A stretch of 64,000 bases of DNA. Source: Ostreococcus lucimarinus (taxonomy: Eukaryota). Numbering within the stretch: position 1 is the stretch's first letter; every line of letters begins with the position of its first letter. The DNA is taken from NCBI GenBank assembly GCA_000092065.1, contig CP000586.1; one strand, written 5' to 3'. Below the pieces are notes generated by a model. That model was not told where the DNA came from, made no database searches, and saw only the letters and a list, made by a program, of their open reading frames with translations. A program made the position numbers and the translations under genes. This document shows, in pieces, positions 5,550 through 55,600 of the stretch.

Positions 5550-5572
5550 CGCGTACTATGCGTCTAATCGAT

Positions 5573-7458: not shown

Positions 7459-7479
7459 GACGACGACGACGACGACGAC
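7459..7479. repeat. (GAC)7 trinucleotide microsatellite
   Basis: cgacgacgacgacgacgacgaca lies immediately upstream of the 7483 GTG. Confidence 0.8.
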
Positions 7480-7620
7480 AGCGTGTTGGACGCGGTGGAG
7501 GAGAGCCTGACGCAGCGGCGACGCGGCGACGAGACGGCGACGACGACGAAGGCGACGACGAACGCGCGCGGAACGACGCGCGGAGACGATGGGACGACCG
7601 CGAGCGAGGAGTTGCGACAG

Positions 7621-24305: not shown

Positions 24306-27176
24306 ATGACCGAGACCGCGCTCGTCATCGCGCGGACGCCCGCGGATAAGTACCGCGTGCGAGCGTGCGCGCAATGCGACAGAAAAGGCGACGCACTCGC
24401 GATTCATTGGCGACGCGGGCACGACCCATCGTCCGCGCTGTTCGGGAAGGATCTGTGCGATAAGTGCGGTAAAGCCGAGAGCCGACGGTTGGTGAAGGAG
24501 CGAGGCGCGGTCCCGCGCGTGGTGTTTCGAGGAACGACGGACGGCGCGACGAGGGCGCCGAGGGCGTCGGGGAAGACGTCGGGGACGAGACGACGAAGGG
24601 CGCCGGCGGTTGGCGGAGAGAAGACGCCGCCGGCGAAGGCGAGATCGCGACCGGAGACGAAGCTCGGCGCTAAGAAAGCGGTGAGAAAGGCGAAGACGTC
24701 GCACGCTGGGTTGGGGTCGATCGCGGTGGTGCGTGAAAAGCTGAGACAATTGGCGACGGAGGAACCGTATTACGCGTGCGAATCCTGGCGGCGAACGCCG
24801 TACGACATCACTCCGTACGATGTGCTGCCGGATGGTGCGTACGTCGCGGGCGTCGGTGTCGAAGATGAGGACGCGAAAGTGTTGTTTGATCGGTTGAACA
24901 CGTCGGTGAGGGATGGATGGACGGATTACGTGCCCGTGAGCGTGAGCGACGGGACCGCGGCGGCGGCGACGGGACAGCAACCGTCGATGAAGGCGCACAG
25001 TGGACTGGAATTAGATTTGTCCACGGAGAAGTTGCGCACGCCGTTGCGTTTGGGGGTGGATGTGGAGGAAAGATCGCTGTGGGGGATGGATTGTTTCACG
25101 CGCGAAGCGATTTTGGCCAGCATATCTGGGGTGACGTGGTACGCGGGCGACGAGAATCGGCCCAGGCGAGTGGAGTATTTGCAACAGCGATTTCTACCGA
25201 AGTTGCACACGCTCGGCGCTGATGGCTGGGATGCGTCGCGTGTGGCGCAGTGCGTGCTCGATGATGCGATAAAGAATGGTGAGAAACACACGGCGATGGC
25301 TTCGCGCGCGTTGCTGAGAGTTATTGCGGAGTGCGACGACGACTACGCCCGGGCGCCGGCGCCGAAAAAGAAGAAGGCAAACTCTACGACGACTACGGGA
25401 GAAGTCAAGGCGGAGGATCATACAGAAGAAATCGTCGAATCCCATGATCCGCGCGCTAGGCGCGAGAGATTTCGAATCCATCCCAAAGGTACGGGTGTGG
25501 TATGCATAAATCCCAACGGCTTGAAGGCGGGTACGTTCGTGAATCACTACATCGGTGAAATTTATTCGCCGTGGAAGTGGTACGAACGGCAAGACGCCAT
25601 AAAAAAGTGTTACCCCGGCATGGAGCTTCCCTCGTTCTTCAACATCACGCTGGAGCGTCCGCCGCACGATGATCGTGGGCGGCACGTCAGCTTCGTCGAA
25701 GCGATGCACAAAGGCTGCTTTGCGTCGCGGCTTTCGCACTCGTGCGAACCGAATTGTCAAACGGTGACGTTCGCAAAGGGAGGCAAGCTTACCCTCGGTA
25801 TGTTCACCACGCAAGACATCGCGTACGGCGAAGAGATGACGTGGGACTATAGTTGCATCACCGAAAGCGCCGAGGAATACCGTACTGGATTTTGTCTGTG
25901 CTCGTCTCCAACGTGCCGAGGTTCGTTCCTCACGTATTCGGGCTCGGGCGCGTTCACGGCGGTGGTGAACAAAAAGCACGCATTTTTACATCGCAACGCC
26001 ATACTTTTCAAGGCGAGCACGTCTGCGTTGACGAATGTTGATCGTAAGATGCTACATGACAGCGGTATCCGCGAATGTGCGCTCGAACATTGTCCGGACT
26101 GGGTCGTCAAGTGGGCGGCGTTGACTCTCGAGTACATCAAGCTAGAGGAGAACGAACTCCCGAACGAGTTGATGAGCTTGCCCGCGACGCGTTTCGGTCG
26201 GTACAACGAACTCGGGGCAAAAAGCGAAGCAACTGGGGTGGCGGCAACGAGGATCACGAACCTTATCGTTACGCTCGATAAAATCCGGTACGTGTTGACG
26301 CGATCCGGACAGGAACGAGCTCCATTCTTTCGAGTTTTGACAGAGAGCGAAGTGATCGAGCACCTTTGGAGCGGTGACGAGTCCATATTACGACGAATCT
26401 TGCGCTCAATATTAGCCGGCGCAGGGGCGAAGAAAGGGTCAAATTCTGTTGGCAAGAGTCGATTAGTCATGGCGAAGATGCCAAAAACCGGCGACGCTCG
26501 CGTCGACGCGGCGATGAAAGCGATTCAGGAACGCATCGACATTGATGAACGACCGAAGACCGCTAGTGGTGCGTGTGAGTCAATGCTCGAGATTTGTACG
26601 ATTTTAAGGCGAATCGACGCGACTTTTTACGCGCAAGTGTCAGATTTGTTGTGGTTTTACGCCAACACTCGCAACTGGTTCACACACGCCAAGCTCGATA
26701 ACGTCATTTCGCCCGCGGTGAACATCGATGATGTGGCGAGCGTGATACCGACGACGCAGCGAAAGCACATCCCTAACGCATTCCGTGGTAACAGGGAGGC
26801 GATGCTGCAAAAACGGTACGGTGCTCTTTACGTATGGGGGCAGTTGGTGACGTGGTACAAGCAAACCATTTACAGTCCCGATTCTTCGCTCAGCGCCGAT
26901 CGTCGCGGGACTTTGTCGTTGCCAGATCCCGAGAGTTGTTGCAGCGCCGCGCCGTCGGCGTACGTGAACAAAGAGCGAAAGGAACTGTTCAAGGCTCTCC
27001 GCAAGAACAAGCATCAGTCTTGGCCGACGGCGACGTCGTGGAGTTTCAAAAATCCAGCCAAGGTGTACGGCTCACCGATGTTCGACGACGCGTTGCGAGA
27101 GATGTACCCGAAAGAGTACGCCTCGACCACGTCCTTCACCACTTTACTCGACAAGCACGAACGTCAGTCTATGTAG
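24306..27176 (+). CDS. SET-domain lysine methyltransferase with post-SET Cys cluster and N-terminal CxxC…CxxC zinc-binding motif
   Basis: The SET core is GTGVVCINPNGLKAGTFVNHYIGEIY…RLSHSCEPNCQTVTFAKGGKLTLGMFTTQDIAYGEEMTWDYSC. The post-SET region is FCLCSSPTCRGSF. The N-terminus has CAQCDRKGD…CDKCG. ATG is at 24306 and TAG at 27174-27176. Confidence 0.8.
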   Translation: MTETALVIARTPADKYRVRACAQCDRKGDALAIHWRRGHDPSSALFGKDLCDKCGKAESRRLVKERGAVPRVVFRGTTDGATRAPRASGKTSGTRRRRAPAVGGEKTPPAKARSRPETKLGAKKAVRKAKTSHAGLGSIAVVREKLRQLATEEPYYACESWRRTPYDITPYDVLPDGAYVAGVGVEDEDAKVLFDRLNTSVRDGWTDYVPVSVSDGTAAAATGQQPSMKAHSGLELDLSTEKLRTPLRLGVDVEERSLWGMDCFTREAILASISGVTWYAGDENRPRRVEYLQQRFLPKLHTLGADGWDASRVAQCVLDDAIKNGEKHTAMASRALLRVIAECDDDYARAPAPKKKKANSTTTTGEVKAEDHTEEIVESHDPRARRERFRIHPKGTGVVCINPNGLKAGTFVNHYIGEIYSPWKWYERQDAIKKCYPGMELPSFFNITLERPPHDDRGRHVSFVEAMHKGCFASRLSHSCEPNCQTVTFAKGGKLTLGMFTTQDIAYGEEMTWDYSCITESAEEYRTGFCLCSSPTCRGSFLTYSGSGAFTAVVNKKHAFLHRNAILFKASTSALTNVDRKMLHDSGIRECALEHCPDWVVKWAALTLEYIKLEENELPNELMSLPATRFGRYNELGAKSEATGVAATRITNLIVTLDKIRYVLTRSGQERAPFFRVLTESEVIEHLWSGDESILRRILRSILAGAGAKKGSNSVGKSRLVMAKMPKTGDARVDAAMKAIQERIDIDERPKTASGACESMLEICTILRRIDATFYAQVSDLLWFYANTRNWFTHAKLDNVISPAVNIDDVASVIPTTQRKHIPNAFRGNREAMLQKRYGALYVWGQLVTWYKQTIYSPDSSLSADRRGTLSLPDPESCCSAAPSAYVNKERKELFKALRKNKHQSWPTATSWSFKNPAKVYGSPMFDDALREMYPKEYASTTSFTTLLDKHERQSM

Positions 27177-34009: not shown

Positions 34010-35982
34010 ATGCCGCGCGATCGCGCGCCCCGAATCGCCGCGCGCGAGAGCAAACGCTCGAAAACAGCACCAGCCATGTCGGGTGGCGGCGCCGACGTCT
34101 CGACGAAATCAACGACGCCGCAGGGCACCGACGGGACTAAAGGCACCGACGATCGAAGGGATCACGAACGGCGCATGCGAGCGTTGTGCGCGTCGACGAG
34201 CGCGGCGATGCGGGAAGCAGGCGCGGACGCGGATGCGCGAGCGATCGCGGGCGAAGCCGTCGGCGCGCTCTTCGAGCCGACGCTTCGACGCGCGCGCCGA
34301 TTGATGCAAAGCGAACTGGGAAAGTGGTCGTCGGAACATCTCGCGCTCGCGTTGGACATTTTCATGGGGATCGTCAACGACGAGGCGATGGTCGCGGCCG
34401 GGCGGAGCAAGACGTCGAGCGAGGCGCTCGGCGCGCTCGGCGCGCTCGCGAGTTGTTTCGCGACTAAGCCGAGCGGCGCGTTCGAGCGCGCCGTCGTAGA
34501 CGCGATTCCGAGGCGTGCACTCGCTGTAGCACTCGCACGTGGATTTGAATTAGCGGTCGTCGAGGCTCGGGCGGGTGTGCGAGCGTCGCCGAACGATGTG
34601 GAAGTGTTAGCGGAGAGCGCGGCGTTGGCGTACGCGATGACGACGTCGCAGGGGCGAGAAGATGCGACGACGCTGGAGCCCGTGTTGCGGGCGCTGTACG
34701 CGTTTTTGACGCTTGACAGTGCACCGTCGAGAGACGCGACGTTCACGGCGGGTGTGACGCTCGCGAGGGCGTGTTGCGACGACAATCGTCCTGAGACGTC
34801 GCTCGAGGCATTGGAGGCGACGTTTTTTGCCGGAGCGCGCGGTGCTTGCGATGGCAGCGCGCTCTTGCGCGCCGCGACCCGAGTGGCTAGTGCAGACGAA
34901 ACGATGCGAGCGTCATCTTTCGGTGCGCTTGCTGTGCTTCGTGGATTTATCATCACGGCTGACGACGCAGCCCTCGCACGTCGGCGAGACGGTGACGCGA
35001 TATTTCACGACGTGCTGCCGGCCATTTGCGAGTTTATCGAGCACGGCGATGATGTTCATCATAGATTTCACGCTGTTACGTGTTTGAAAGTAGCTTTAGA
35101 AAAGATGAAGTCGGCCGCGTCGATGGGTGCGTTGAAAACGTTTCCAAGAGACGCGTTTGATCGCATCGCGTTTGTCATCGCGTCGCGATGGGAAGACACT
35201 TTCGGGCACACCGTGCGAGAAATCCAGACGTGCTTTGGGTTGTTGCTCGATATCATCGTCGATTCATTTGAGGCGCAGTACGATGATTATGTCGATCGCG
35301 TTATCTCGCGAGCGTTGCGACGGCCAGCAGAGCAGAAGAGCAAGTACCTCGCCCTGCGCGTACTCATTACCAAGTTTGGCGCTACACGCATTCTTACGGC
35401 GGATTTGGATTTACTCTCAAAAACGCTCGACGCCATGCGAGAGGCGTCGATTGCACCCGCGGCATCCAGTATGCTCGCCGACTTGTCGAGTGCGTACATG
35501 AGCGAACTCAAATCCATTTCAAAGTGGCGCGAGTGGTGGCTTCCGTGTGTGACACGTTGCGTGTCCGCGGAATCCAAGGCACGCGCGCCGATCGTGACTT
35601 ATGTCCTGCCGCTCTTTTTTAAACAGGACGGCGAATCCGTCATCGAGTTTACGAAGCATCTCTCGAATGAAGCTAAACGAGACTATCGGAACGACAATCT
35701 CATCGCCGCCGTCGTTTCCGTGCTCAAAGTGGCTCGTAATTTACAAATGGTTGATCCCAGTCGCATCACCGTCGTTCGGGCGGCGGCTAACGGAGACGCC
35801 TCGACGCCTTCATATGAGGTTGACCAAATCGTTATCGACCACGCCATGGCGAGCGTGGACAAAACCGCGCGTCTCGATGTGCTCGAATGGCTTTGCCTGG
35901 AAGGGCGACGCGGCTCGGCCACACTTCCAGGGTCATACGAACTCAAGTTATTGAAGCGCATGGTTTCCGCCAATCTCAGAGG
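34010..35982 (+). CDS. THADA: THADA (thyroid adenoma-associated protein / Trm732, DUF2428) homolog, exon 1
   Basis: ATG is at 34010, with an alternative ATG at 34076 (MSGGGADVS…). The long ARM/HEAT-like ORF ends at an AG|GTGCGT donor, so the exon ends at 35982 in phase 2. Confidence 0.65.
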
Positions 35983-36175
35983 GTGCGTTTCCTTATCGCT
36001 CGTCACAATTTACTCGAGCTCTATGACGATACAATCCTTTAAGGCGCTGACGACTATGAGGCATCCTTAACCTCCTACTCATTCGGAGAGCTCGACCGTT
36101 TCACGCGGCGTACCGCGCGATGACTTGCTGATCGCTTCTCGACTAACCTTCGATTTTTCATTCGTCCGCACACAG
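35983..36175 (+). other. predicted intron 1 of THADA homolog (GT-AG, 193 bp)
   Basis: GTGCGT…CACAG, with CTAAC about 25 nt upstream of the acceptor. It joins frames in phase 2+1. Confidence 0.55.
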
Positions 36176-37094
36176 AGAATCGGTTTCCTTTCGGAGCGCC
36201 ATCGTGACGCTTGTGTCTAAAGTCTTCGTGCGTATGTGGACTGGTGTCAATCAAATCGGACAAAAAGTCCGACGTCGCGGAGAAGCTGCGATTAAGAAGG
36301 GCATCGTCACAAACCGAGCAAAGGATGATCCTTTGAAGTCGGATATCGAGCGCGCGACAGAGGTGCATGCGTTCGTCGCGGAGATCGTATGCGTGTTGAT
36401 TGCAAACGTGTATCCAGGCGCGCCATTCGAGCGACGTTGCACCGCACTGGAGCTATTAAACGTGATTGCGGATACGTGGAAGACTGCTGATGATTTTGAA
36501 CTTACTGAGAAACACGGAACGGTCGAACATGGCCACGACGTCATCATCGCGCGACGGTTGCTGACTTCGCCGTACGACGCATACATGAGGGATGAAGCGT
36601 TTACGAATCTATTGCTCGGAGCTCTCGTGGACAGCTGGGAGAAATTGCGAATGACTGCGTTTGATTTATTGCGAAGGCATCCGGCACCGCTGGCGGGTAT
36701 CGAGACTCCAGAAATACTTGCAAAACGGCTCGAGTGGGCTTTGCAGCTTTTACGATCGCCTCGCGTTCGTGAAAGTGGTGCGGCGGCGCTGTTGATTCGT
36801 TTACTCATTCGTAAATACGGTTTCGACTTGAACTGGCGTATCCACCTTGGTCCAGTTACTCAGGTCGTCGAACACGCGAGAGACGCCGCAGACGTGGCGA
36901 AATCAGGAGCTACTATCCAGGTCATGGAATCGCTGTGCGACTTACTCGAACAAGATATTGCGCTCGCGGAACGAGACGTCATGAAAGCGAGTCAACGCTC
37001 ACTTGCACATGGTGCCGTTCTTTTGACGAGATTTGCACTTTGTGAGATTGATTTGAATGGCAAATTCGACGAGTCGACTCAGAAGCGAATACAG
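36176..37094 (+). CDS. THADA: THADA homolog, exon 2
   Basis: Acceptor …TTCATTCGTCCGCACACAG| sits with CTAAC about 25 nt upstream. Reading continues …ANLRG|ESVSFRSAIVTLVSKVFVRMWTGVNQ…. The exon ends …STQKRIQ before a GTGAGT donor at 37095. Confidence 0.65.
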
Positions 37095-37328
37095 GTGAGT
37101 TCAGTCGTGCCTCGCGCGCTACGTGTTTTCGACACTTCTTTCGAAAGGCGATGAAGAAAACCAGGCTCCCTCTACCGAATTGCCATGTCGGATAACCGTC
37201 GGCTGAATCGAACAATAAACAACCCTGGCCAGGACCGAGCTCTTTCGATGTTTTCTTTTTTTTTCTTCATCCCGTCACGCGGTTCGTTGCGACGTTGACT
37301 GAACTCACATTTCTACTTCTATTCGCAG
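37095..37328 (+). other. predicted intron 2 of THADA homolog (GT-AG, 234 bp)
   Basis: GTGAGT…poly-T tract…TTCTATTCGCAG. It is AT-richer than the flanking exons. Phase is 0. Confidence 0.7.
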
Positions 37329-38081
37329 GACTCCGCGAGTCGTTTAATGGCGCTCGCGGGACGCGCCACAGATTTGGCTTTGGACTTCATTAGTCAGCCT
37401 GATGCCTTGGGTGCGACGGCGGAGGAGGTCAAAACTCTACAACACGACGATCTCATGGACGACGCCGAGGATGTTGACGACGACGCATCACTCGATCTCG
37501 CGCCCAAGGCTCAAATCATCACGACAGCGTGCTGGCTGACGGTGAAGGAAACGAGCCTACTCACGGGTGAAATCATAGCTTCGTCCACGGATGTATTTTC
37601 GTTCGATGCGATCAAATCGACGGGCGAGCGCTTGATGAAAGTGTTGTTCGCCGTAAAACACACCGGTGCTCTCGAGAAAACACGCATCGGTATGACTGCA
37701 GTTTGTTCACGCTTGATGCGATCGGACGACGCTGCTATGAAAGCGTTACCGCAGCGTTGGCTTGAAGACCTTCTTGATCAACTCAATCGCCCTGGTCAAG
37801 GCATTCGTGATCGCGTTCGACGTTCGGCGGGCTTACCGTACGCGTTCATGTCCATCCTTCTCGCCGAACCAAAAGGACAACCGAGACTGGCGCTTGACGG
37901 CGCGCTCCCTCGCTTGCTCGATATTGCATCTGGTGTTGTGAGCTCGGACATTCCCCGAGTGCATGCCTTCAACGTTATTCGTGTCATTTTCGCCGATCGA
38001 GATTTGACGATGGACACCACACCGTACGCCGCGCGAGGTGTGCAGGTGTGCATCGACGCTTTCTCTTCGCCAACTTGGGAG
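37329..38081 (+). CDS. THADA: THADA homolog, exon 3 (contains DUF2428 core)
   Basis: Acceptor …TTCTACTTCTATTCGCAG| is preceded by CTCAC/CTGAAC motifs. The exon encodes …GIRDRVRRSAGLPYAFMSILLAEPKG…, the RRSAGLP signature of THADA/Trm732, followed by …AFSSPTWE. It ends before a GTACGT donor at 38082, in phase 0. Confidence 0.7.
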
Positions 38082-38324
38082 GTACGTCCTCTATTGTCAC
38101 GCGCATTCGTTCTCGCTTTCTCGCCGCGCCACGCTGGAGGTATCGTTGCCTGTGCTTTAGCCTTGCGATTGGGCGCATGGCTTGTTCCCCAGCAACATTC
38201 AAGGAGTTCGAACAAAGAGCGCCCGCGTGCTCCAGCGGGCGTTTGGAAACTCGAACTCAACATTCGCTTATCGATGTTTGCTGATCAAACTTTTCGACTG
38301 ACTTTTGCCTCGACGATGCTATAG
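38082..38324 (+). other. predicted intron 3 of THADA homolog (GT-AG, 243 bp)
   Basis: GTACGT…CTGAC…ATAG, phase 0. It removes an in-frame stop and restores the conserved W-x3-N-x2-T-L-x-F-x3-L motif across the junction. Confidence 0.6.
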
Positions 38325-40490
38325 ATTCAAAACGCCGCGACACTGGCTTTTGCGTCGCTCTTGACCAAAGTGTGTGGTTACATGAACACCGTGACGCGCG
38401 CGCGCCATTTCACCGCTGACGGTCGTCACGAGGTGAAATTCGTCGAGTTTTTCCAAAGGTTCCCAACACTCATGACGTATTTGGGCGCCGAACTCGAAAA
38501 GGCAACGAGCCTGTCGTGTTTGGAGACGTCACTCGACGTCCATCCGAGCTTGTATCCAATACTAGCTCTACTCTCTCGATTGAGACCGAGCTTGGACAAA
38601 GACAAGAGCGCGTACACCGATGGTAAATGTGGCGACGACTTCTTCGTTCCGCTCGTGCGATGCATGTCGGGTAGATATCTCGCCGTGCGCACCGCCGCGG
38701 CGCGCGCTATGGTGCCCATTCTACCGTCCACGCGTTTGTGCGAGTACATCGACAAGATATTCACCTTCGAGCTCGTCGATAAAGTAAACCTCAACGCCAT
38801 TCACGGAGCGTTGCTGTGTTTCCTCGAAGTCATCAACGAAGTCCGACGGTCAGCGTTCTCTGATGACGTGTGCTGGGCGGCATTCTCCGCCGACGCGTCC
38901 CGGCGCTTAGTCGCATTCGCCGAGTGTGCCGTCGGAGCGCCGTGTCCGATGATTTCTGCGACATGGCTGAGATGTGCTGAAGCCATTGTCGCGATTGAAA
39001 ACTCAAAGCGCAAGTGCGCGCGCTCAAATTGCGCGTGCCGAACAACGGGGGATGAAAACGCGATCGGTGAAATGTTGCGAATGATTTGGCAGTGTGCCGC
39101 ACCAGTACTATCGGCAAACGCGGAAGGTCATCCAGGGGCATCTGAGTGGCATAGAACAGCGGCAGGAGCGCGAGTACGACTCACATTAGGATTCGATTCT
39201 TGGCTCGTGCCGCTGAATGATGGCCTTTGCGCGAATTTGGACACGGGCGACGCCTTGACGGCGTTGCTCGATACTATCAGTCAAGACTTGCCGTATGAAT
39301 ACCGCGCTGAGGCGTACAAAACCATGTTCAAAACACCCATTACGAAAGATACGAAAGTTTTGAGCGATAAGTTGCGTCATTTCGCCGCGGAAAATCTCGC
39401 GACAGAGTCGCGACACACGTGCGCACGTCGCGCGCTTCAGTGCATCGATTTGTGGACGGCAAGCAGCGATGCGAATGTCTCGTCGACCGTTTTTACCGCC
39501 GTCGAAAGCATTACATTTTCGAGCATAAACGAGCGCGTGCGATCGGAAGGCATGCGATGTCTTGCGGTGCTGTACAAGCGTCGCATTGCCCAACAAAACG
39601 GTTCGTTGAATATTGACGATTTCAAGTCGTTGGACAAGTTTACGCGTGCTTTGTCCATTGGATCTGCACCTGCGCAGTCCGCGGAGACTCGTCGCGCCGC
39701 TGTCGACGCACTCGCTCGAGGGGATCTGTTGCTATACCTCAATCTTGAGAACGTTAAACGACAGGAGTCGAGTCACGACTTTCCGGCACAAGTGGCGTTG
39801 TCGACATGGAAATGCGCGTTGACGCTCGTCGAAGACGAGGATGTTGAAATCCGCGCGAAGGCATCCATCGCCATCTCTCGCGCAGTGGCCCCGACGGTAC
39901 CTAGCGCTCATAGTGAAGAAAGTCTTTGCGACGCTTTCGCACACATGCACTCCAACTTTGCCGGCCTCAGAGAATTCGATGATTACTGCGTCCAACTCGC
40001 TCGCGGTTTGGCGCACGACGAGGCTAGCTTTGCGAGTGTCATTTCCAACGCCACGAGTGTTCGTCGGCTCTTCGATAAGGAAGCAGATAATATACACGCC
40101 GAACCTCTGTTGTTGGCGCAGATCGCTGCGACTCACGCTTCGCAGACGCTCGATGTTGAACGCGCGAGGGAGGGTCTCAGAGACGTCACCGAGCGAATCG
40201 AATGCATGTTGCGCGCGCTGCGAGCGTCTCCCGAAGACGTGTGGGTGGGCGGCATCGCGGGGCACGAGGCCTGTTTCTTACCAATCAGCAACGCGATTCT
40301 CGGTGCGAGCGTGTTTGCAAAAGCGCTTGAGCGCCAAAACCTTCCCAGTGGTGAATCGTTCCGCGAGACGATGCGCTCGGCGAGCGCGGCGATACCTCAG
40401 CTGCGATTATTCGTAAACGGCGGACTCGACATGTACGACCACGTGTATCTCATGAAGCATCGCTTGTGGCACCTCGGCGCAATCTCCTAA
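38325..40490 (+). CDS. THADA: THADA homolog, exon 4 (C-terminal HEAT region)
   Basis: After acceptor …GCTATAG|, reading gives IQNAATLAFASLLTKVCGYMNTVTRARHFTADGRHEVKFVEFFQRFPTLMTYL…. This aligns, from memory, with human …VRNSSTLLFSALITRIFGVK…NRMTGREFFSRFPELYPFLLKQLE. TAA is at 40488-40490. The four exons sum to 5811 nt, about 1936 aa; human THADA is 1953 aa. Confidence 0.7.
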   Translation: MQNAATLAFASLLTKVCGYMNTVTRARHFTADGRHEVKFVEFFQRFPTLMTYLGAELEKATSLSCLETSLDVHPSLYPILALLSRLRPSLDKDKSAYTDGKCGDDFFVPLVRCMSGRYLAVRTAAARAMVPILPSTRLCEYIDKIFTFELVDKVNLNAIHGALLCFLEVINEVRRSAFSDDVCWAAFSADASRRLVAFAECAVGAPCPMISATWLRCAEAIVAIENSKRKCARSNCACRTTGDENAIGEMLRMIWQCAAPVLSANAEGHPGASEWHRTAAGARVRLTLGFDSWLVPLNDGLCANLDTGDALTALLDTISQDLPYEYRAEAYKTMFKTPITKDTKVLSDKLRHFAAENLATESRHTCARRALQCIDLWTASSDANVSSTVFTAVESITFSSINERVRSEGMRCLAVLYKRRIAQQNGSLNIDDFKSLDKFTRALSIGSAPAQSAETRRAAVDALARGDLLLYLNLENVKRQESSHDFPAQVALSTWKCALTLVEDEDVEIRAKASIAISRAVAPTVPSAHSEESLCDAFAHMHSNFAGLREFDDYCVQLARGLAHDEASFASVISNATSVRRLFDKEADNIHAEPLLLAQIAATHASQTLDVERAREGLRDVTERIECMLRALRASPEDVWVGGIAGHEACFLPISNAILGASVFAKALERQNLPSGESFRETMRSASAAIPQLRLFVNGGLDMYDHVYLMKHRLWHLGAIS

Positions 40491-42598: not shown

Positions 42599-44887
42599 AT
42601 GTCTAGCGCGGCTTTCGAAGAGGTCGGGCTGTGCCCGGAGCTCATCGTCGCCGCCGATCGCGCGGGGTACGCGCTACCGACGCCCATTCAAAGCGAAGCC
42701 ATTCCTCTGGCCCTGACCGGTGGGGACGTTCTCGCGAGCGCGGAAACCGGGAGCGGGAAGACGTTCGCGTTCGGTGCGCCGACGCTGCAGCTCGTGCACG
42801 AAGCGATCGATCGCGAGCGCGCGGATGCGCGCAGGAAAACGACGGAAAAGGCGCGAGACGTGGAAATTTTGGCCAACTCGGCGCGACGGCGCGGTTTGAG
42901 CGCGAACGCTCGAAGCGCGACGTGCGCGGTGGATTACGATGCGAACGTCGTGCAGAGCCGAGCGACGCAGAGTTGGGGGGGCGTGCGGGGAAGATTCGGC
43001 GCGGACCCGCGAACGGGGGCGGAACGCGCTTTAAAGGTGTGCTTTGAAGTCGAGGCGCGCGACGAAGGGTTGGCGCGATGCGGGTACTCGAGTCGGTTCG
43101 GCGCGCTGGACGGTCTCGGCGCGGACGCGCACTCGTACGGGTACGGGGGGACGGGGAAGAAATCGCACAACAAATCGTTTGAGGATTACGGGGAGAAGTT
43201 TGGTAAGGGCGATTGCGTGGGATGCTTGCTAGATTTAGAAAACGGCGTCGTGACGTTTACGAAAAACGGCAAAGCGCTCGGCGAGGCGTTTCGATTGAGC
43301 GAACAGAGCGCGAAATGCGACGGGTTGTTCCCGGCGGTGTGCGTGAAAAACGCGGAGTGCGTCGTGCGCTTGGTGGAAAGTGAGTTCAAGTACCCGATGC
43401 CCGAAGGATACGTCGCGTTCGGATCGCTGCGAGGCTGCGACGCCGTGGACGGCGACGACGCCTCCGCCGGGGACACGCTCGAAGCGGGCGCGCGTAAGCC
43501 GCGCGCGCTGATTCTCGAACCCGCGCGCGATTTAGCCGAACAAACGCACGAGTTTTTCGTGAACTTTGCGTCGGAGTTTCGCGATCCCACGCTCGTGCCC
43601 GGGTTGTTCATCGGCGGCGTGAAGGAGGGACCGCAGCATCAGCAATTGCGCGACGGCGTGGACATCGTCACCGGAACGCCGATTCGCATCCTGGAGCTCG
43701 CCATGAACGGTAAGCTCGATCTCAGCGCGTGTCGTATCTTCGTCTTGGACGAGGCCGACCGCTTGCTCGACACCGGCAATCAGGCGCCGATTTTGAAGCT
43801 CTTCGAGCGCATGCCCAAGCACGCCGAGTCCTCGGCGCAGCGATTACAGGTGATGCTCTTTTCCGCCACGTTGCACTCGCCCGAGATTCGCAAACTCGCC
43901 GATTTTCTCACCGTCAACGCCACGTGGGTAGATTTGAAAGGTAAGGAGGCGGTGCCCGAGACGGTGCATCACGCCCTGGTGCTCGTGGACCCAGCAACAG
44001 AGGACGTCGAATCGCTCTCACCCGCGGCGCCGACGGATCGTCTGCACTCGCTCGCGACAAAGCTCGAGGGCGACGACGCCATGAGCGAGTCTATCAAGCG
44101 CTTGAAACCGCACATCGTGCGTAGAATCATAGATGCGCACGATATGGATCAGTGCTTGATCTTTTGTCGAACGAATTTCGATTGCGACAACTTGGAAAAG
44201 TTTCTCAACGAATGCGGCGGAGGGAAGAGATTCCGGGGGCCGTTGGTCGGCGGCGTCGAAGGAAAGTATTCGTGCTGTGTCCTCGGAGGTTCGCGCCACA
44301 TGGATGAGCGGCGTCGAAACTTACAAGCGTTTAAAAATGGTGACGTGAGATTTCTGATATGCACCGATGTCGCCGCTCGAGGGCTCGACATTAAGAACCT
44401 GCCCTACGTCATCAACCTGACGTTGCCGGATCGCAGCGAGGACTACATCCATCGCATCGGCAGAGTAGGTCGGGCGGACACGATGGGTCTGGCGATTTCC
44501 ATTGTCGCCTCAAGGAACGAGCGAGTGTGGTATTGCACGAAGAAAGGCTACAAGCCGTGGTTTGAGCCGAAACCTGAAGACGTCAAGCTCACGTCTGACG
44601 GCGGACACACGATTTGGTACGACGAACCCAAACTTTTGAAGGACATCGAAAAGCGTATCGGTGCGACCGTGACGCCACTAGGGCCGAATTACGCGCTACC
44701 GGAAGCATTTGGGATGCACGGTGGCAAAGACGCGTACGGAAAGGCTCGCGATGAGAAACCAAACGAAGAGTTGAACGCGCACTTGGAGGCGTACGCGCCG
44801 AACGTTCGCGCGTTGGCGGTTTTGGAGACGAAAGTGCAGAGCTCGTTCTGGGATCTCAAGCGCAAGTTCGCGACGCACGTAGAATAG
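42599..44887 (+). CDS. DDX1: ATP-dependent RNA helicase DDX1 (DEAD-box with inserted SPRY domain)
   Basis: Motif I region is LASAETGSGKTFAFGAP. The SPRY insert between motifs I and Ia reads …GYSSRFGALDGLGADAHSYGYGGTGKKSHNKSFEDYGEKFGKGDCVGCLLDLENGVVTFTKNGKALGEAF…. LDEADRLL (DEAD) and HRIGRVGRA are present. The protein is 762 aa with ATG at 42599 and TAG at 44885-44887. Confidence 0.9.
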   Translation: MSSAAFEEVGLCPELIVAADRAGYALPTPIQSEAIPLALTGGDVLASAETGSGKTFAFGAPTLQLVHEAIDRERADARRKTTEKARDVEILANSARRRGLSANARSATCAVDYDANVVQSRATQSWGGVRGRFGADPRTGAERALKVCFEVEARDEGLARCGYSSRFGALDGLGADAHSYGYGGTGKKSHNKSFEDYGEKFGKGDCVGCLLDLENGVVTFTKNGKALGEAFRLSEQSAKCDGLFPAVCVKNAECVVRLVESEFKYPMPEGYVAFGSLRGCDAVDGDDASAGDTLEAGARKPRALILEPARDLAEQTHEFFVNFASEFRDPTLVPGLFIGGVKEGPQHQQLRDGVDIVTGTPIRILELAMNGKLDLSACRIFVLDEADRLLDTGNQAPILKLFERMPKHAESSAQRLQVMLFSATLHSPEIRKLADFLTVNATWVDLKGKEAVPETVHHALVLVDPATEDVESLSPAAPTDRLHSLATKLEGDDAMSESIKRLKPHIVRRIIDAHDMDQCLIFCRTNFDCDNLEKFLNECGGGKRFRGPLVGGVEGKYSCCVLGGSRHMDERRRNLQAFKNGDVRFLICTDVAARGLDIKNLPYVINLTLPDRSEDYIHRIGRVGRADTMGLAISIVASRNERVWYCTKKGYKPWFEPKPEDVKLTSDGGHTIWYDEPKLLKDIEKRIGATVTPLGPNYALPEAFGMHGGKDAYGKARDEKPNEELNAHLEAYAPNVRALAVLETKVQSSFWDLKRKFATHVE

Positions 44888-46628: not shown

Positions 46629-49600
46629 TCACGCGTCGATGTTTAAGACGCACGCGACGCCGCGTAAGATCCACGCGCTCGCGTGCTCGCTCGAGGCCAA
46701 GTCGGCTTGGAAGACGAGACCGCGACCCATGGCGTCGCGACGACTTTGAGTGAAGTACACGGGCGCTTTGAAAGCGTTCGTTGTCGATGAGGAGGAGGAA
46801 GAAGAGGGCATCGTGGTGCGTTCTATCGGGACGAGACGCAGGATGGGGAGCTCGCGCGCCAAGCCGCGGTCGCTTGGATGCGCCAGGACGCGGCGTTCGG
46901 CGTCCCAAATCGCGCCTTCGAGAAATAAACCCGAGATGTAACAGCCTATCTCGGGTTTGGCGTCGATTTCATCCGCGGAAACGTACGGGGTGACTTCCGT
47001 ATACATCGTGCTCGCGTCTAAAGGCCAACCACGAGAGCGACACGCGGTTTGAATGAGTGCCGCGATGTACGTTTCCGGGCAGTGTAAACCGCTGAGCCAG
47101 ATGACTTTTGGTTCGCCGTCGACGGCCCACGACTTGTACTGCTTCTCCCGCGTCTTGTACCACGTCATCCAAGATTGTACGTCTTTGTCTGTCGGTGGCG
47201 CGACACTTTTCCACTCCTCCGGTAAGCGCCCGCGCGAGAGTGAATCCGCGACGGCGTCGAGTTCTCGCGACATGCCGATTTCCCCACTCAGCGCCTTGAC
47301 GAGCTCTCGCAACGAGTGTCGAAGCACCAGCTTTAACGCGTTGTGACGCTCAATCTCCTGGAAGAGTACCACGGTCGTCGGCGATGGAACTTCATCTCCG
47401 CGCTGACGCTGGAGTTTTATCAAGTCAAACTCGAAATCTTCGTTCGTGACGACGTTTAAGATTTCGTTGACGATGGCGAGCAAGGCGCCGTTTCCATCGC
47501 TCGAGCCAGCGCTCTCGTCGTTCGACGAAGCCGAAATGGAGAGTTTACTCTGGAGCGATAAGACGTTAGACCATAACGCTTTCGCTGCTCGTGTAGAGTG
47601 TGCGACGTCTGCGTTGGCGTGAAGCCCGAGTACTTCAGGTGTCTGCGCGTCTGGAAGTTCATCGATGACGCGCGATTGCTCGTCGTACGAAGATTCCGGC
47701 GGCGGCAACTCATAACGAACTCGAGCTTCTTCGTCGGCGTAAAACATGAACTTGTGAAAGCCATCAAATAAGAAATCGCCAAAGTACTCGTCCAGATACG
47801 CGCTCAAGATACGTCGATCGTAATGATCGCTCACGCGTCCACCGTACATGGCCTCACCTATGAGATATTTCAACGCCGCCCACGGAATCATTCTCGAGCC
47901 GCCGCCGCCGGTGTTCACGGCGGCAACTTTGTTACAATAAGTCTTGATCAAACTGAACGAAATTCGAAAATCGGTTTCGTTGAAATCATACGCAACGTTC
48001 CATCCGAGCTTACCGTACTTTCGTCGCTCTTGCACGGCAGCGTGGAAGAAGGCCAGCACGTACGCTAAAGATCTAAAGAAAGGGTTCGCGCAACTCCCCA
48101 AGACGTCTTCGGACAATCTCGCGTACGACGCCTTCATGTTCATCTTGAGCCCGTCGGGGGGTTCTGTGACAACTTTGAGACTTTTTTGCAGAATACCGAT
48201 CGGGAACGTTTTGATCGGGTCGGTGGTGAGCCACAAACGGAAGTCTTTGTGCGGGTTCGCCAATCCGTCGACGACTTTTTCGAGCGCCGGCAGCCATTTG
48301 GGGAGAAGATGACAGTTTTGCAACATGAGCCACAAACCTCGCGAGGCGCACGTAAGAATAAGTTCCTCGGCTTTAGGTCCCATGCCTTGCCCAAGGGCCA
48401 TGAACTTCAGTTTGCCTCCTGCCTTGAATCCCATCGTTTCTCCCAACGCAAAAATATCAAACGCCGGATCTGCGCCAGGGGAGAGAATGAACACCACAGG
48501 TGTCTGCGCGGAAGACAATTTAAATATGCTTTCGTAGTCTGAAATCGGAGGCGTTACGTATCTTGAACCCATGGTTTCAGTGATGTAGTTCGACACCGCC
48601 ACCGTGACTCGATCTAATCGAGCGCAACGCAACAAGCATAGGCGCTCAAAACTGGACAGCGACGCCGAGTAACCATCTGGAAGCGCTACGGATTCGGGTT
48701 GTTCGCAGTCGTACCATGCGCGCCACGCATCGGCGTTGGACGTGATTCGATCGACGATTCCGTTTAGTGTTGCGCACTTGTCGTCATTAGCCGCGATGTG
48801 CTCGTCTAAATGCATTAAATCTTGCCAACCACGTTCGGACCACCATGGAAGCGGTTGCGAATCCCCGGAGGCGGCGTCAAGCGTGACGTTGCCCTTGAGG
48901 AAGAATCGTAGGAGGTTGCCATTCAATCGTCCATCACCGTCTTCGATTCTCGTAGTCATTTGAAACGAAAGCGCGAGTTTATCGCGCTTGAACAAACCGA
49001 GACATGCAAATTTGTACACGTCGTACGTCAACCTATCCACAAGATCACTCAAGCGCTCGTCCAGTTGATCGCGCACGGGCGTGACATGAAGCGTGTTGCA
49101 GAACACATCCAAAAAGCTCGAAAGTGAGTACTCGTACATCGCGTTGAGATTAGAGAGCGCTGAAATGACGAAGAAGAGTATCGCGCCGCGCTTTGCTACG
49201 GGAGAGTAGCACGACTGTGCCTTGTTTAACTCTTTCGCCGAACGCGCCGCCGCCACGAGCTTTTCAGAAATCTCTGTAGACTTTGTCTTCGCGCTCTCGA
49301 GTGTTTCGATGAGCTCCACGTTATCAACGATTTCACCCTGTGCGGTGGACAACTCATAAAGCAACGTGTCTTCGAGTTTCTTCAACAGTGCTCGATTCGC
49401 GACGGTTTCCTTGACGAGTTTTTCTCGCTCTGTTTCAAGATCTGGGCGCTCTTGCTTCACCGTGACATTCAAAAGTTGCTCTTGGAGCCCGAGCTCAGTG
49501 ACAGAGTAGTTGATTATAATCGTTTTACCCGTCACATCTGGATCGTAATGGGGATTTGGAAGTTTCGTCGTCATGTACAGGCGGAAGTTGTCGTCCCACT

Positions 49601-52600
49601 CAACTTCAGAATCGCCAAGCTTGATCATCTTCGCTCCGTTTGGAGCGTAGTAGAAACTCTTCTTCAGCACCGGGTCCAAAACGGGATCAATGTACTCGCC
49701 CACGTTTTCTATCAAGAATGGTAAACCATATTCAATGGCGAGCTCGAGTTGTTTCAAAAAGTCTGCGTCGGTCTGACGTTTAATCTTACCTTCGAGCTGC
49801 GCGCCCTCGCGAGATTTGATCCACTTTACCGCTTGCATCTGCGGATCGATACACAGCGGGAATCGCTCGGCGCGCATGGTGAGTATACCGTTTTGTACGC
49901 TAAGCTCATCACCTGGCAACCCTTCGGCGAGCCAAGAATTCATTTCGTTGTCATCTGTGAGTAACGCTTGGAGTCTGAATGGTTGACTCAACGGTATGCC
50001 GAGCTCCAGCAAATTCTTCTCAAGATGATCGTGAACGAATTGTTTACGAAACTCGTACGTAAACGTTCCAGCGTACGACAAGAACGCGGAAGTGATCAAA
50101 CAATCGCCAACAAGTCGCTCTTTACGGGAATTCAGTTCTTGCATCTCATTCGTCCATCTGACCTTTTCGCTCGACAGTCCCGAGATGAGTCGTTCGGCGG
50201 CGGCGAGACGGTTCGCCATTAGCTCGGCACTTTCCTTCAAGTCTTGCTGACGCGCGCTCTTCTCTTCGAACTGCGTGCTGAGTTGCTTTAGCTCGATCTG
50301 TAAGCTCTTTAACTCAGACTTCGTTTCAACCAATTCGCGTTCTTTAATCTTCAACGTCTTCTCCGCGTTTGCGACGGCGGCGCGCTTTGGATTCACCATG
50401 CGAGCAACTTTGTTGTAATTAATCATAGCAAACACCCATTTCAGCAGACCGGCACCAGCAGTCGAAATCTTCATCACTTCATCGGGCTTGAATTTTGAGT
50501 CTTTTGTGTACTCGCGAATGGCTTTCATCTGTTTTTCTTTGATGCCATCCTTGTCAAACTCGACGAGAGATCTTAAGAAATTTGTATCTGCCATCATGCC
50601 TTTCGCTCCAGACCACGAGACGTTCGGCAGTCCTTTGAGAATCATCACACATTCACATACTCGCTGAACCGCGATGTTTGGCTTAGAAAACGATCGGATT
50701 TCGGTAATCTCGTCCTTTTTCAGATTATTCAACGCCGCGGCGGCTTCTTCGAGAGCAGGGATTGCCGCCTCTAAGTCTGCCTCAGCTTCCGTCTTTTCCT
50801 TCGCGATACGCGCTGAATCATTGATGAGATCTTCTTCTTTACTCGTTGCGTTAGCTGCTTTAGTTTCGACTTCCGCCGTGCGCTTCGTGATGCGATCTAG
50901 TAAAGCATCACACTCCTTCGCTTGCTGCGTGACGACGATTTGCGCGTCGTTGAGCTTCGTCCGCATTGCGTCCACTTCGGTGCTCGCCTGTATTAATTTG
51001 TCGAGACCACCACGCAAACGTTTGATTGAAGTTTCAATTGACGCGCGCTGCGTCTTAAGCATTGCTTCATAGGCGGCGATAAAGTCCAAATAATGCTTCG
51101 GAGTGACGTAGTTGTGTCTCTTCAGCTGTGATTTGAACTTTTCGTTGAGAGCAATCGCCGAGCAGTGCGTGTGCACGACGTGCACGTTAATCTTCTCCGC
51201 GAACTGTTCTGGCAAATCTACGTTTATGAGTAATGAAGTGCTTACTTCGAGCAATGCTTCTTTCGGCCATTCTGTGAACCAGTCGATAACAGTGTTGTTC
51301 ACCAATCCGGGGAAGTTTCTGCAACGGTGACGCAACGTATCGCCGACGGGAGACATGGCGAGGACGATGTGCAAGTTCTTTCGGCAACGCGAAATAAAGT
51401 ATCGCCAACCTTCATCGCGCGTGACAGAAATTTTATTCGCGTGCAAATCGTCACGAATCGCATTCACCAAAGCGTCCTTCTCTTCATCGGCGAACAACGC
51501 GGGAACCGTACCCGTGGTGAGCATGTTGTTGATTAACTCCAAAAATCCTTCCTCAACGACGTGGTTGTCGGTGAAAAGAAACATCGTGGGATGATTTTGC
51601 ACCCCAAGTACGTTGTATAGCTTTTTCAAGTCCTCCCTGAACGACTCATCGTTGTAGCCACGCGTCAGCGTGATCTCAAACACTTCACAACCCGCCATAT
51701 CAGCGGCGAGATGCGCGAGCGATTGTTTGCCGCTTCCGCCGACGCCGACGAGAAGCGCATGTCCATTTTCTGTTCGAAGTACGCGATGAATACGCGTGAT
51801 ATGCTCTAGCGCATGATCAAACAAGACTAGTTTAGTCGGTGCTGAGCCATCGCTGAGTTTGGCGTTACGACGATTGATGAGGTCCTCGAACCAAGGTTTG
51901 ATGGTGGCGTAATCGCCAACGTCAGCGTACGAGCGTAGTCGACTAGAAGGATCGACTTCATCTGACGATCCACTTCCATCGATTTGTTTTAGTGGACTGT
52001 AGTCGGCGAATAAAATCGGGTTGGATGTGATCGGCGAAGTGTCATCAGTACACCCATGGCGAATAAGTGACGATACTTTTCCCAGTACGAAGTCGCGATC
52101 TTTGTCCGCAATCAACCTATCGTGAAACACGCGAATCGATTCGTTTCGCCACAGGCGCAAGAAATCTGGGGTGTTTCGAACTTTTGCTGACGTCGCTTTC
52201 GACATGCCCTCGAACAAGCGACTTAAGTCGCGAAGGTTAAAGATGTAATGAAATCGGCTCGGCGTCGGCAAAAGTTTGGAGACGACGCTCTTATATAAAT
52301 CCAAAGTCATATCTACGACGAGTTCGTGCGTCCCGGGCTTGAGAGCCAGCGTTTTTGACGTATTCGTTATGATTGAACCATAAATTACCTTAAGATTGGT
52401 CTCATCCGGGGTCTGCATTTCGAATACTTGGAACATTGAAACAAAGCGTGGGTCCACAACGCTTCGTGCGCCGCCGGGATGCCCCATGGCTGCGATGTAC
52501 TGAATATCCTTCATCTGCAGCCAATTCAAATCACGTCCGCGGTCGTACGTGCCTCCACGGCCAATCATGAGTTTTAGCAACGCGATTGGTTGTTGCGTAC

Positions 52601-55600
52601 CGTACTTATCGACGGCAGGCATGTTCAAATCGTCCACGAAGCACAATAAACGCTTGCCGACGGGTGGACCCACCGTGTCCTTCGTGCGCTTGTCCAGCAC
52701 ATCCATGAGCGAGCTATGCACATCATTTGCGGTCGTACGAGAACTGAAATTCATCGTCACCGTGTTCGTCTTTCCATCTTGCAATCTCTTTTGTAAATAG
52801 TTCTTCACGACAACAGTTTTACTTGTTCCGCTATCGCCGGTGAGAAGCGTATGCGCGTCACAAGAGCACATGAGGTCGATTAACCAGTTTGTGCGAACCG
52901 TGTGCGCGGTTGAAACCAAGAGCGACGAAAATGGAGTGTTTGGTGGCACCTCGAGTGGAGTGGTGAGACTTTTCCATTCGTACCACGTGTTACGAGTGAT
53001 ATCAAAGCCATAATCATACAACGTCGCGCCCGCCGGCAAAACGTTGCCGAAATTGGCGAGTCGCCTAACGAAGTCATCGAATCTCGCACGATCAGAGTTT
53101 CCAGACGTTTCAACGATAGTCGCACCGAATGACCACACTAAGCAGAAGATAAAAGCCGATTCGATCGCCCGAACGTAGTCATCATCCTGGCTCGTCTCCA
53201 CGTCGCTGGTGGAGTCATCGAGAGCTTCCAAAAAGCTTTGCATCAAAATGGTGAACTGTTTTACCACAGATATCACCGGTCGATCGATCGACGTTCGCAC
53301 GATTGAAATCATTCGCCCGTCAAGTTCTGTGCCGTCGTAGCAAAATGCCGTCATTCTATCCATGTACTTGTCAAACATACGCAATAACGTTTCGCGGTGC
53401 TTGGCGCCGACACCTTCGGACCAAGTCTTGAGGAACGGTTTGAAGCCGAGATTCTTGGGGTCTACGTACACCATTCCGCAACGACTTACAGTGGCTGGAG
53501 AAGCATACTTTAAGTCGGCCACCTCAAACAAAAGCTTGCAATGGTCTTGAAGACGAATCCGCTCACCGTTTGGCAACGTCAGTAGGCGATTATCGTCCAT
53601 TACGCTATTCATATTTTCGACCCAAACTGCGTCGACATCGCCATCAAATACTATATACTTGAAGTCGTTCTCACGTCCAATAGCCATCGGTTTGTTGCAC
53701 TCGCGAAAAATATTCGAAAGAAGACCATCAGTCCAATCTCGCGTATCCGGATCCAATTCGCCATAGAGTTCGGCCACCGTTTGCGCTTTTGGATTTAGAG
53801 TGTACAACTTCGTATTTCGACCCATCGTAGTTTGCGCGCGAGCGATTGTTTCAAGCATGACAGACTTACCTCCACCAGTCTCGCCGACTAACATCGTCGT
53901 ATGCCTCGTCAACATAGTCTCATACAACTGAATAATTTTGTCCACTTGCTCGCCCGGGCGCGTCAACACTTGATAGCCATGCTTGGCCAAGTCTTGTTCA
54001 ATGACATCGTTGAGAGTAGGATATCGAACACGCGGGCAGTCTAGTCCAGGGAATAAATCGGCGATCAGACCCAAAAAGAGTGGGACATCGTCGAATACAA
54101 ACTTTGGCAGATTCATATCCCTCAACGCTCGCATGAGAACTACCTCTTCGGCGAGCTCGGGCGCATCGCGCTTCAGCGCGCCAGCCATGACGAGCACCGA
54201 TTTAAGCGCGCGTAAACCGAAATCATAATGCGATCTTTTGCTAAGTTGCTCTTTAGCCAGGCGGTACAGTATCGTCATCTTCTTCGCGAGAGCTTTCGCC
54301 GCGTTGAAACCTTCGCTAAAGAGCATAATTTCACAAATTTGCTCCAAATCCGGCACAATCATAGTAACGGGGCGGAACAGAGCCTTCAAGTTATCCGGAA
54401 GTTCGGTTCTACCCGCATACCCAGGATTCATAGTGATGAAAATACCGGTGCGTGCGTCGCAATTGATTTCTTTTCCTTCAAACTGGAATCGTGACAAATT
54501 GTGCTTCAACGCTTCTTGAATCTGCTTAATTTGCGATGAGACGACGGACAGCACCTCAGCCTCAATGCGATTGAACTCATCGAAGCATCCCCACGCGCCG
54601 CACTGCACAAGACCACTAAAAATGGCCCCCATAGCTTTGTAGTCTAATCCTTCACCACAATTGAACACGACGCAAAGCAAAGCCATGGACTTTGCCAAAT
54701 CCTTTGTGGTCTCCGTCTTTCCTGTGCCCGCGGGCCCGCTCGGGGCACCGCCGAGTCTATACGTCAGCGCCGTAGTGAGCGTGATATAGCAGCGGTCAGT
54801 TAGACCAGTGATTACGAGACGCCCATTCAAACCCATGTACTCGTAACCATATCTGAATTCACCACTGCACTGATTGATGACGATGTCGTCGCGTGCCTTG
54901 TCCCACTTGAAACGAAGTTGCGACTCCCACGCAAAATCTGACTCATCTAAAACAGAATCTCTAACGAAAGAGTCGATGATGTCTCGCGCGTGGACGTCAA
55001 TGATGATCAACGTATTCACTTTTTTTCGTTCGCACGAGCTAAGCTCGCCTCGAACCATTTTCGTGAGAACCTCGAGTTGCGACGAGAGCTTGTCGCTGTA
55101 ATTCCGCATGGCGAGTTTATCGCCCGAGCGAATCGATTTGAATACGTTTTGCACTTCCCAGGTCCACCAAATTTGCGACCCCACAAGGGTGATCATTCCA
55201 AGCTGTTCTTTTATCCATTCTTCACGATCGCACGTCATGTATCGCGCGACTCCATACTTGCACAACGCGCGTAAGGTTGCCCGCATCTCTTCTTCGACGG
55301 CAGACATCCAATCCTCAACAGGGCCTTGAATTTTTACGGGCGACTTGAACTTGAACGATTCCCCCTCTGCGGACGTAATCCCGACTACGCACGCTTTATC
55401 AGACGTAAACGTCAGCTTTGCACAGTTGTCAAACAGCTTCAACATGTGCTCCTGAATTAGTGTCGGATCGGCAGCACCTAAAATTGAAAGCAGCTCCTCG
55501 TCGGAGATGAAGAAGAAGCGCGGAAACGCGTCCCGCTTTGTGTCTAAATATTGACTCAAACTCTTTTGACATATCTCCAGCTCCTCGCGAAGGTTCTTCA

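Follow-up and report, generated by a model that had tools for sequence, protein, structure and literature searches.

The gene and its introns

Four open reading frames (ORFs) follow one another on the plus strand of a 64,000-nucleotide (nt) stretch of contig CP000586.1 from the marine alga Ostreococcus lucimarinus CCE9901; this whole stretch is called the window below. The initial annotation of this DNA had placed them at 34010-36070, 36204-37154, 37347-38324 and 38361-40490, in agreement with the ORF list of the window, and had read them as the pieces of one gene of the THADA/Trm732 family. Our analysis leads to the same gene and adds what lies within its introns. We hold with high confidence that 34010-40490 (+) is a single THADA/Trm732 gene, divided by three GT-AG introns, each of which contains one small nucleolar RNA (snoRNA).

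Joining the four exons at the borders given in Table 1 (34010-35982, 36176-37094, 37329-38081 and 38325-40490) yields a coding sequence of 5811 nt, which translates into 1936 amino acids (aa) plus a stop codon with no internal stops; both lengths are those first proposed. The donor sites of the initial annotation can be read in the sequence, and the three junction peptides it quoted, ANLRG/ESVSF (phase 2), KRIQ/DSASRLMALAG (phase 0) and SSPTWE/IQNAATLAF (phase 0; the slash marks the junction), are identical in the spliced translation. It had further described each acceptor as a YAG preceded by a CTRAC branch-point motif. All three introns do end in YAG and, with CTRAY sought 15-45 nt upstream of the acceptor, introns 1 and 3 also have the CTRAC, the branch adenosine being 29 nt (CTAAC) and 23 nt (CTGAC) from the intron end respectively; intron 2 is taken up below. 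A scan of the exons for further intron-like signals that would keep the frame found none. We also considered that the three introns might be copies of one mobile element, as in introner-type repeats, and rejected this, as their mean column identity is 58% and they have no common core.

The neighbouring genes are mostly single uninterrupted ORFs, including that of a 4657-aa dynein heavy chain, which makes a gene with three introns unusual in this region, in line with the earlier statement that introns are rare in the window.

Table 1. Exons, introns and predicted intronic snoRNAs of the O. lucimarinus THADA/Trm732 gene model (positions in the window)
Feature	Position	Strand	Description
Exon 1	34010-35982	+	aa 1-657 plus 2 nt of codon 658; alternative ATG at 34076 (M23); dN/dS 0.19 vs L007
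Intron 1	35983-36175	+	193 nt; GTGCGT...CAG; phase 2; CTAAC at 36143-36147
Predicted box C/D snoRNA (intron 1)	36015-36098	+	Ot-CDsno61 orthologue; 68/76 positions identical
Exon 2	36176-37094	+	last nt of codon 658 through aa 964; dN/dS 0.33 vs L007; tblastn matches to relatives
Intron 2	37095-37328	+	234 nt; GTGAGT...CAG; phase 0; TTGAC at 37295, CTCAC at 37304
Predicted box C/D snoRNA (intron 2)	37138-37248	+	Ot-CDsno62 orthologue (snoR30/SNORD100 type); 75/83 positions identical
Exon 3	37329-38081	+	aa 965-1215; DUF2428 core; RRSAGLP at 37818-37838; dN/dS 0.11 vs L007
Intron 3	38082-38324	+	243 nt; GTACGT...TAG; phase 0; CTGAC at 38298-38302
Predicted H/ACA snoRNA (intron 3)	38133-38267	+	Ot-HAsno63 orthologue; 103/128 positions identical
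Exon 4	38325-40490	+	aa 1216-1936 plus TAA stop at 40488-40490; dN/dS 0.14 vs L007; homologous ORFs in many relatives
dN/dS, ratio of nonsynonymous to synonymous substitution rates; L007, related strain described in the text.

Identity of the encoded protein

Three Pfam domains are found in the spliced protein, collinear and in the order typical of the THADA/Trm732 family. TPR_Trm732 (PF25150) covers aa 506-815 (E 1.5e-21) and spans junction 1; DUF2428 (PF10350) covers aa 968-1215, corresponding to positions 4-259 of the 259 in its profile, with a score of 193.7 bits against a cutoff of 27 (E 4.8e-57), and ends exactly at junction 3; TPR_Trm732_C (PF25151) follows at aa 1218-1382 (E 2e-27). 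With E-values of this order for three collinear domains, the observation of a THADA gene lies far beyond chance. The RRSAGLPYAF motif on which the initial annotation had drawn is present from aa 1128, and its RRSAGLP portion (aa 1128-1134) falls inside DUF2428. These residues are needed for the formation of 2'-O-methylcytidine 32 (Cm32) by yeast Trm732 and human THADA (PMC9088939).

Human THADA (PDB 8y2o) was the only solved structure matched in a HMMER search (E 9e-57), and the alignment is collinear in three stretches. It crosses junction 1, where the human chain reads ..tyNLNSQSPGVRQQICSLLKKLF.., and junction 3, where it reads SPVWAVRNSSTLLFSALITRIFG, followed by FFSRFP. The human counterparts of the last junction and of the downstream FFQRFP that had been cited in favour of this gene are thus both part of the structural match, and an alignment with THADA across the predicted junctions was obtained for junctions 1 and 3. 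A full-length homology search with the spliced protein returned mammalian THADA only, at approximately 24-28% identity, and no named Ostreococcus protein was among the matches in this or the other homology searches; as the word-index pre-filter evidently overlooks closely related sequences when the query is long, the lack of named algal matches is weak evidence.

The predicted O. lucimarinus protein is, by its domains and motifs, an ordinary conserved THADA/Trm732 protein of the armadillo/tetratricopeptide (TPR)-repeat kind. By homology it would direct the methyltransferase Trm7/FTSJ1 to 2'-O-methylate position 32 in the anticodon loops of transfer RNAs (tRNAs). No Trm7 gene and no tRNA gene was found in the window.

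Comparative support for the junctions

The relatives with which we compared the model were metagenome ORFs at several distances, found with 900 aa around the junctions. Junction 1 is read through without interruption or gap in seven of these ORFs (P0029-33, P0039 and P0040; 32-37% identical; ..MRGESAAFRNAL..), whose ..(A/C)(M/L)RGESAAFRNAL.. aligns with ..ANLRG/ESVSFRSAI.. of the model. Junction 3 is likewise crossed without a gap by two ORFs, P0027 and P0028 (approximately 50% identical; ..SWEVQNAATLAFASLLTKVCG..), in which ..AFSSPSWEVQNAATLAFASLLTKVCGYMN.. aligns with ..AFSSPTWE/IQNAATLAFASLLTKVCGYMN.. of the model. The homology of P0028 starts exactly at aa 964/965, which is junction 2.

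Where the introns are present, their positions are conserved. Five related loci (L004, L005, L006, L007 and L010) have a GT-AG intron of phase 0 at the same codon boundary as intron 2, and the position and phase of intron 1 are common to the same five loci. The position of intron 3 is shared by L006, L007 and the distant locus L012; the intron is absent from L004 and L005, whose ORFs are collinear at this point. L007, which belongs to a strain approximately 93% identical, gives an intact ORF of 1937 aa when spliced at the homologous sites, and an intact ORF of approximately 1900 aa is also found in relatives at 45-50% identity. Comparison of the window with L007 gave dN/dS values of 0.11-0.33 over the four exons, which indicates that all four pieces are coding and under purifying selection.

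The order of the Pfam domains, the human alignment, the intron-less relatives, the conserved intron positions and the dN/dS values argue together for one THADA/Trm732 gene rather than four, as initially suggested. This comparative evidence also supports the three GT-AG introns with the very borders first proposed, and the support for the gene model as predicted is the maximum reachable without transcripts.

A predicted snoRNA in each intron

When the orthologous introns are aligned across species, each consists of a conserved core within a diverged remainder: the identity of the cores to the window is 79-89% between species, as against 35-65% in the intron flanks. These cores were not part of the initial annotation. 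Each intron carries one predicted snoRNA, two of the box C/D class and one of the H/ACA class, and these are the orthologues of Ot-CDsno61, Ot-CDsno62 and Ot-HAsno63 of Ostreococcus tauri.

In intron 1, the core (83-89% identical between species, compared with 35-64% in its flanks) has a box C AUGACGA, a D' box CUGA, a C' box AUGAGG, the guide CCUUAACCUCCUACUCAUU and a box D CGGA, enclosed by the terminal stem CGAGCUC/GAGCUCG. It includes an invariant 20-nt element, CCUUAACCUCCUACUCAUUC, directly before the CGGA. The terminal stem changes between species in a way that preserves pairing, being GAGCUC/GAGCUC in the window, GAGCCC/GGGCUC in L004 and L005 and AAAGCUC/GAGCUUU in L006; five of its pairs are compensatory, and its covariation score was reached by none of 500 shuffles. 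Compared with the Rfam family snoZ105 (RF00145; At-snoR7 type) the core scores 21.2 bits (E 2.1; gathering score 45), with an identical guide.

The core of intron 2 comprises the box C GAUGAAGA, the guide CCAGGCUCCCUCUAC followed by a D' box CCGA, a second conserved element, GGCUGAAUCGAAC, and a box D CCGA. It aligns over its full length with the Rfam family snoR30/Z108 (RF00046) at 24.6 bits (E 0.026; gathering score 60). Four of the six pairs in its terminal stem are compensatory, and here too the covariation score was matched in 0/500 shuffles. All relatives, the distant loci L011 and L012 among them, have an Ot-CDsno62-like snoRNA in this intron.

In both box C/D terminal stems, 89-93% of cells are standard pairs, far above slid controls, and the guide elements of introns 1 and 2 are invariant across all relatives and identical to those of the O. 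tauri orthologues. The box C/D consensus (RUGAUGA/CUGA) is represented by variants, AUGACGA with CGGA in the first case and GAUGAAGA with CCGA in the second. As the Rfam scores lie below the gathering scores, we describe the RNAs of introns 1 and 2 as probable homologues that work like these families, and not as members of them. The box C/D snoRNAs end 77-80 nt before the 3' splice site in the window, and 59-84 nt before it in the Ostreococcus-type loci. The distance in the window is near the one reported as optimal for box C/D snoRNAs in mammalian introns.

Intron 3 contains a core that folds as hairpin, hinge (ACAUUC), hairpin and ACA, the ACA standing 3 nt before the 3' end, and six pairs of the consensus fold are compensatory. 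An H/ACA covariance model built from the Ostreococcus sequences found a match in the orthologous intron of L012 (8151-8296; 29.5 bits, E ~1e-6). The same model gave a weak partial match within the terminal part of the DDX1 ORF, at 44764-44808 (-) of the window (11.3 bits, E 0.26), and this is probably due to chance.

The three O. tauri snoRNAs were detected by RNA-seq on chromosome 6, at 751696-753833 (+) (PMC7671301). They lie in introns 1, 2 and 3 of ostta06g04400, a gene annotated only as 'Armadillo-type fold' (PMC7671301, Table S3), and BLASTN orthologues of all three were recorded in O. lucimarinus (PMC7671301, Table S5). For Ot-CDsno61 the predicted target is 25S-A1249, with At-snoR7 in the plant column; for Ot-CDsno62 it is 18S-G373, with SNORD100 in the human and 'snR30' in the yeast column (PMC7671301, Table S4). 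Ot-HAsno63 has the predicted targets 25S-U1926 and 18S-U1273, and no relatives are listed for it (PMC7671301). By analogy with O. tauri, the O. lucimarinus snoRNAs would be freed when the spliced-out introns are debranched and trimmed by exonucleases, and they may then act on ribosomal RNA (rRNA), the two box C/D RNAs as methylation guides and the H/ACA RNA as a pseudouridylation guide. The rRNA sites just named, carried over from the orthologues, would then be their predicted targets.

Database status and alternative readings of the locus

The exact spliced protein, whether of 1936 or 1914 aa (the latter from an alternative start considered below), is not in a collection of 15 billion proteins. 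The same collection does contain RefSeq proteins of O. lucimarinus from neighbouring genes as exact matches, namely a thiolase (XP_001418570) and DDX1 (XP_001418333), both of which are also encoded on many metagenome contigs of marine origin. Gene calling breaks the THADA gene into separate ORFs on 10 contigs (nine from metagenomes and one from a Logan assembly of a public run; loci L013-L021 are among them). Seven of the 10 contigs hold the whole gene, with called pieces of 620, 316, 325 and 702 aa, and only some of the called pieces receive a Trm732 or DUF2428 Pfam match.

Prokaryote-style gene callers divide the locus into separate genes on all of its metagenome contigs, which is what one would expect if the four ORFs were separate genes, or the fragments of a decayed THADA pseudogene, and if the gaps between them were intergenic spacers with independently transcribed snoRNA genes. 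The existence of intergenic snoRNA genes and clusters in Ostreococcus, from which some of its snoRNAs are expressed (PMC7671301), lends this reading some further credit, as does the outcome for the spliced-junction patterns given below. We regard it as extremely improbable, since the gaps have exact GT...AG borders that restore one frame, relatives that lack intron 1 or 3 align collinearly without gaps, every exon is under purifying selection and a single Pfam domain, TPR_Trm732, continues across junction 1. In O. tauri, moreover, the three snoRNAs are uncapped, and their annotation assigns them to the introns of a single host gene (PMC7671301).

A number of observations nonetheless weigh against a single spliced gene with three intronic snoRNAs. 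The last 80 nt of intron 2 contain no CTRAC or CTRAY, so the branch-point part of the acceptor description does not extend to it; the nearest motifs are TTGAC, 30 nt from the intron end, and CTCAC, 21 nt from it. We found no intron-less relative that crosses junction 2, and the human alignment leaves this junction outside as well, so that the predicted junction 2 rests on its conserved position, its phase and its splice signals. DNA patterns of the spliced junctions (J2 and J1) had no matches in metagenome contigs, a collection that possibly contains DNA only. With regard to the RNAs, no Rfam family reached its gathering threshold in the whole window. The H box is ACAUUC in the window, which deviates from ANANNA at the last position (L006 has ACAUUA and O. 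tauri ACAUCA), and L007 has AUA in place of the ACA box. Lastly, the start codon may be either 34010 or 34076, the N-terminus being poorly informative here as it is not conserved between species.

The second of these two ATGs would keep the gene and its introns as they are and give a protein of 1914 aa that begins MSGGG..., the first 22 codons becoming 5' untranslated region. It has a purine at position -3 (GCC ATG) and the ATG at 34010 has a C there, the stop of the upstream gene (33869) is only 140 nt away from 34010, and the N-terminal ~120 aa are those that differ between species. Set against this, no ATG precedes 34010 in the open frame, the strains L007 and L010 conserve both ATGs together with the intervening frame, and the protein collection, having neither variant, backs neither. 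Translation from 34076 appears to us possible but on the doubtful side.

The single-gene model may plausibly be a correction of the existing O. lucimarinus annotation.

Apparent gain and loss of introns with their snoRNAs

The introns of this gene are not the same in all relatives. An additional phase-1 intron, here called Ix, interrupts the gene at model aa ~907/908 in L004 (4163-4361), L005 (~2196-2423) and L012 (~5460-6016), and the same site is read straight through in the window, L006 and L007. In L004 and L005 the Ix core is box C/D-like, AUCCCGRUGAUGC..GUUGCUAGUACUGUC..YUGAGGGAU, with a weak similarity to Rfam snoR53Y, and the Ix intron of L012 has a related box C/D core; the RNA has the guide GCUAGUACUGUC in all three loci. 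A search of the window that allowed three mismatches gave no Ix snoRNA, and the list of O. tauri snoRNAs has none either; Ot-CDsno34 of O. tauri has the guide UUGCUAGUACUG in common with it. This suggests that the Ix intron and its snoRNA were precisely lost together in the lineage of O. lucimarinus and its O. tauri-like relatives.

In the distant, GC-rich locus L012 the gene is interrupted at the Ix, intron 2 and intron 3 positions. An Ot-CDsno62-like snoRNA lies in its intron 2, and its intron 3 junction reads ..SSPHWE/VRNGATLAF... As these three positions are shared with L012 and each is associated there with a snoRNA, they look ancestral. In L004 and L005, where intron 3 is absent and the ORF contiguous, the H/ACA covariance model found no match. 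Since intron 3 and the H/ACA RNA occur in the distant L012 and not in L004 or L005, the comparison points to a loss of both in the L004/L005 lineage, and this pattern agrees with the published orthologue list, which reports Ot-HAsno63 as absent in O. mediterraneus (PMC7671301, Table S5). Intron 1 is confined to the Ostreococcus-type loci and is missing from the more distant relatives, which are the seven ORFs that read through junction 1.

A further feature of L012 is the presence of two copies of the Ot-CDsno62-like snoRNA that are 100% identical (6310-6400 and 7449-7539). They are in different introns of the same gene and have unrelated flanks, the second copy being in an additional intron close to model aa 1164. 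This duplicate could result from gene conversion, or from a snoRNA copy that was inserted into, or created, another intron.

Every lineage examined has a snoRNA in each intron of its THADA gene, and loci that lack an intron gave no match for its snoRNA when the window was searched for the Ix guide, and L004 and L005 with the H/ACA model. Across the Mamiellophyceae, introns and snoRNAs of the THADA gene appear to have been gained, lost and copied together. The constancy of this association could also be taken to mean that the locus is kept mainly as a host for snoRNAs, its protein being dispensable or in decay, as in the non-coding snoRNA host genes of animals. We consider this very improbable in view of the strong purifying selection on all exons, the ORF that stays intact in relatives at 45-50% identity and the conservation of RRSAGLP, which is functionally required (PMC9088939). 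A protein-coding THADA gene remains the reading we prefer, and within it the snoRNA cargo would be the most likely cause of the persistence of three introns in an otherwise intron-poor stretch. The broader proposition, that introns survive genome streamlining or not according to their snoRNA cargo and that copies of snoRNAs can give rise to, or move into, new introns of the host gene, goes considerably further, and we think it unlikely on what we have seen.

Significance

The three-intron architecture and its snoRNA cargo are already published for the O. tauri orthologue (PMC7671301), as are intronic snoRNAs of Ostreococcus in general, including these three, and the present results as a whole leave current understanding unchanged. 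What is new is the identity of the snoRNA host ostta06g04400 as THADA/Trm732 and an explicit gene model for O. lucimarinus, which is complete and comparatively validated. The work also makes plain that metagenome pipelines split this gene of an abundant marine alga into four 'hypothetical proteins' on every contig examined, and it offers, in the snoRNA of each intron, a likely reason for the retention of introns here.

Other features of the window

Three observations concern other genes of the window. The ORF of a tRNA isopentenyltransferase at 61292-62653 (-) encodes 453 aa and is found on 222 contigs; the RefSeq protein of the same cluster, XP_001418572, is a 'partial' sequence of 348 aa and may be truncated. 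An ORF of 956 aa at 24306-27176 (+), with SET-domain and SDG2_C matches, is represented in the protein collection by JGI/IMG, Logan and ENA sources only and, unlike its neighbours, has no NCBI accession; the reference annotation may model this gene differently or not at all. The G+C content is 49-50% across the dynein heavy-chain ORF (48000-58000), compared with 58-71% over most of the remaining window.

Comparison with known systems

Human THADA and yeast Trm732 are the cofactors of FTSJ1 and Trm7, respectively, in the 2'-O-methylation of tRNA nucleotide 32 (Nm32). The O. lucimarinus protein resembles them in having all three Pfam domains collinear and in the RRSAGLP motif, and its 1936 aa are close in length to the 1981 aa of the human chain in 8y2o. 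It differs from human THADA in the low overall identity noted above, with an N-terminal region of ~390 aa and a C-terminal region of ~550 aa that can barely be aligned.

The closest known counterpart of the locus as a whole is ostta06g04400. The same three snoRNAs stand there in the same order, spaced by 1055 and 945 nt as against approximately 1123 and 995 nt here, and they are 80-90% identical to the cores in the window, whereas the flanking protein is only ~50% identical to that of O. tauri-like relatives. The published account of O. tauri (PMC7671301) gives the host no THADA/Trm732 name and contains no O. lucimarinus coordinates or gene model.

Among known snoRNA families, the plant box C/D snoRNAs snoR30/Z108 and snoZ105 of Rfam align with the cores of introns 2 and 1 over their full length, and their antisense elements are conserved, GCUCCCUCU with GAAUCGAAC in the one case and ACCUCCUACUCAUUC in the other. 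The differences lie in scores that are far below the gathering scores of these families, in a box D that is CGGA or CCGA here and not CUGA, and in a variant box C, which is AUGACGA or GAUGAAGA here. Finally, the gene is like the intronic snoRNA host genes of animals in the arrangement of one snoRNA per intron. Animal-type hosts encode ribosomal and translation proteins, whereas the O. lucimarinus host would encode a tRNA-modification cofactor, in a genome where most of its neighbours are free of introns.

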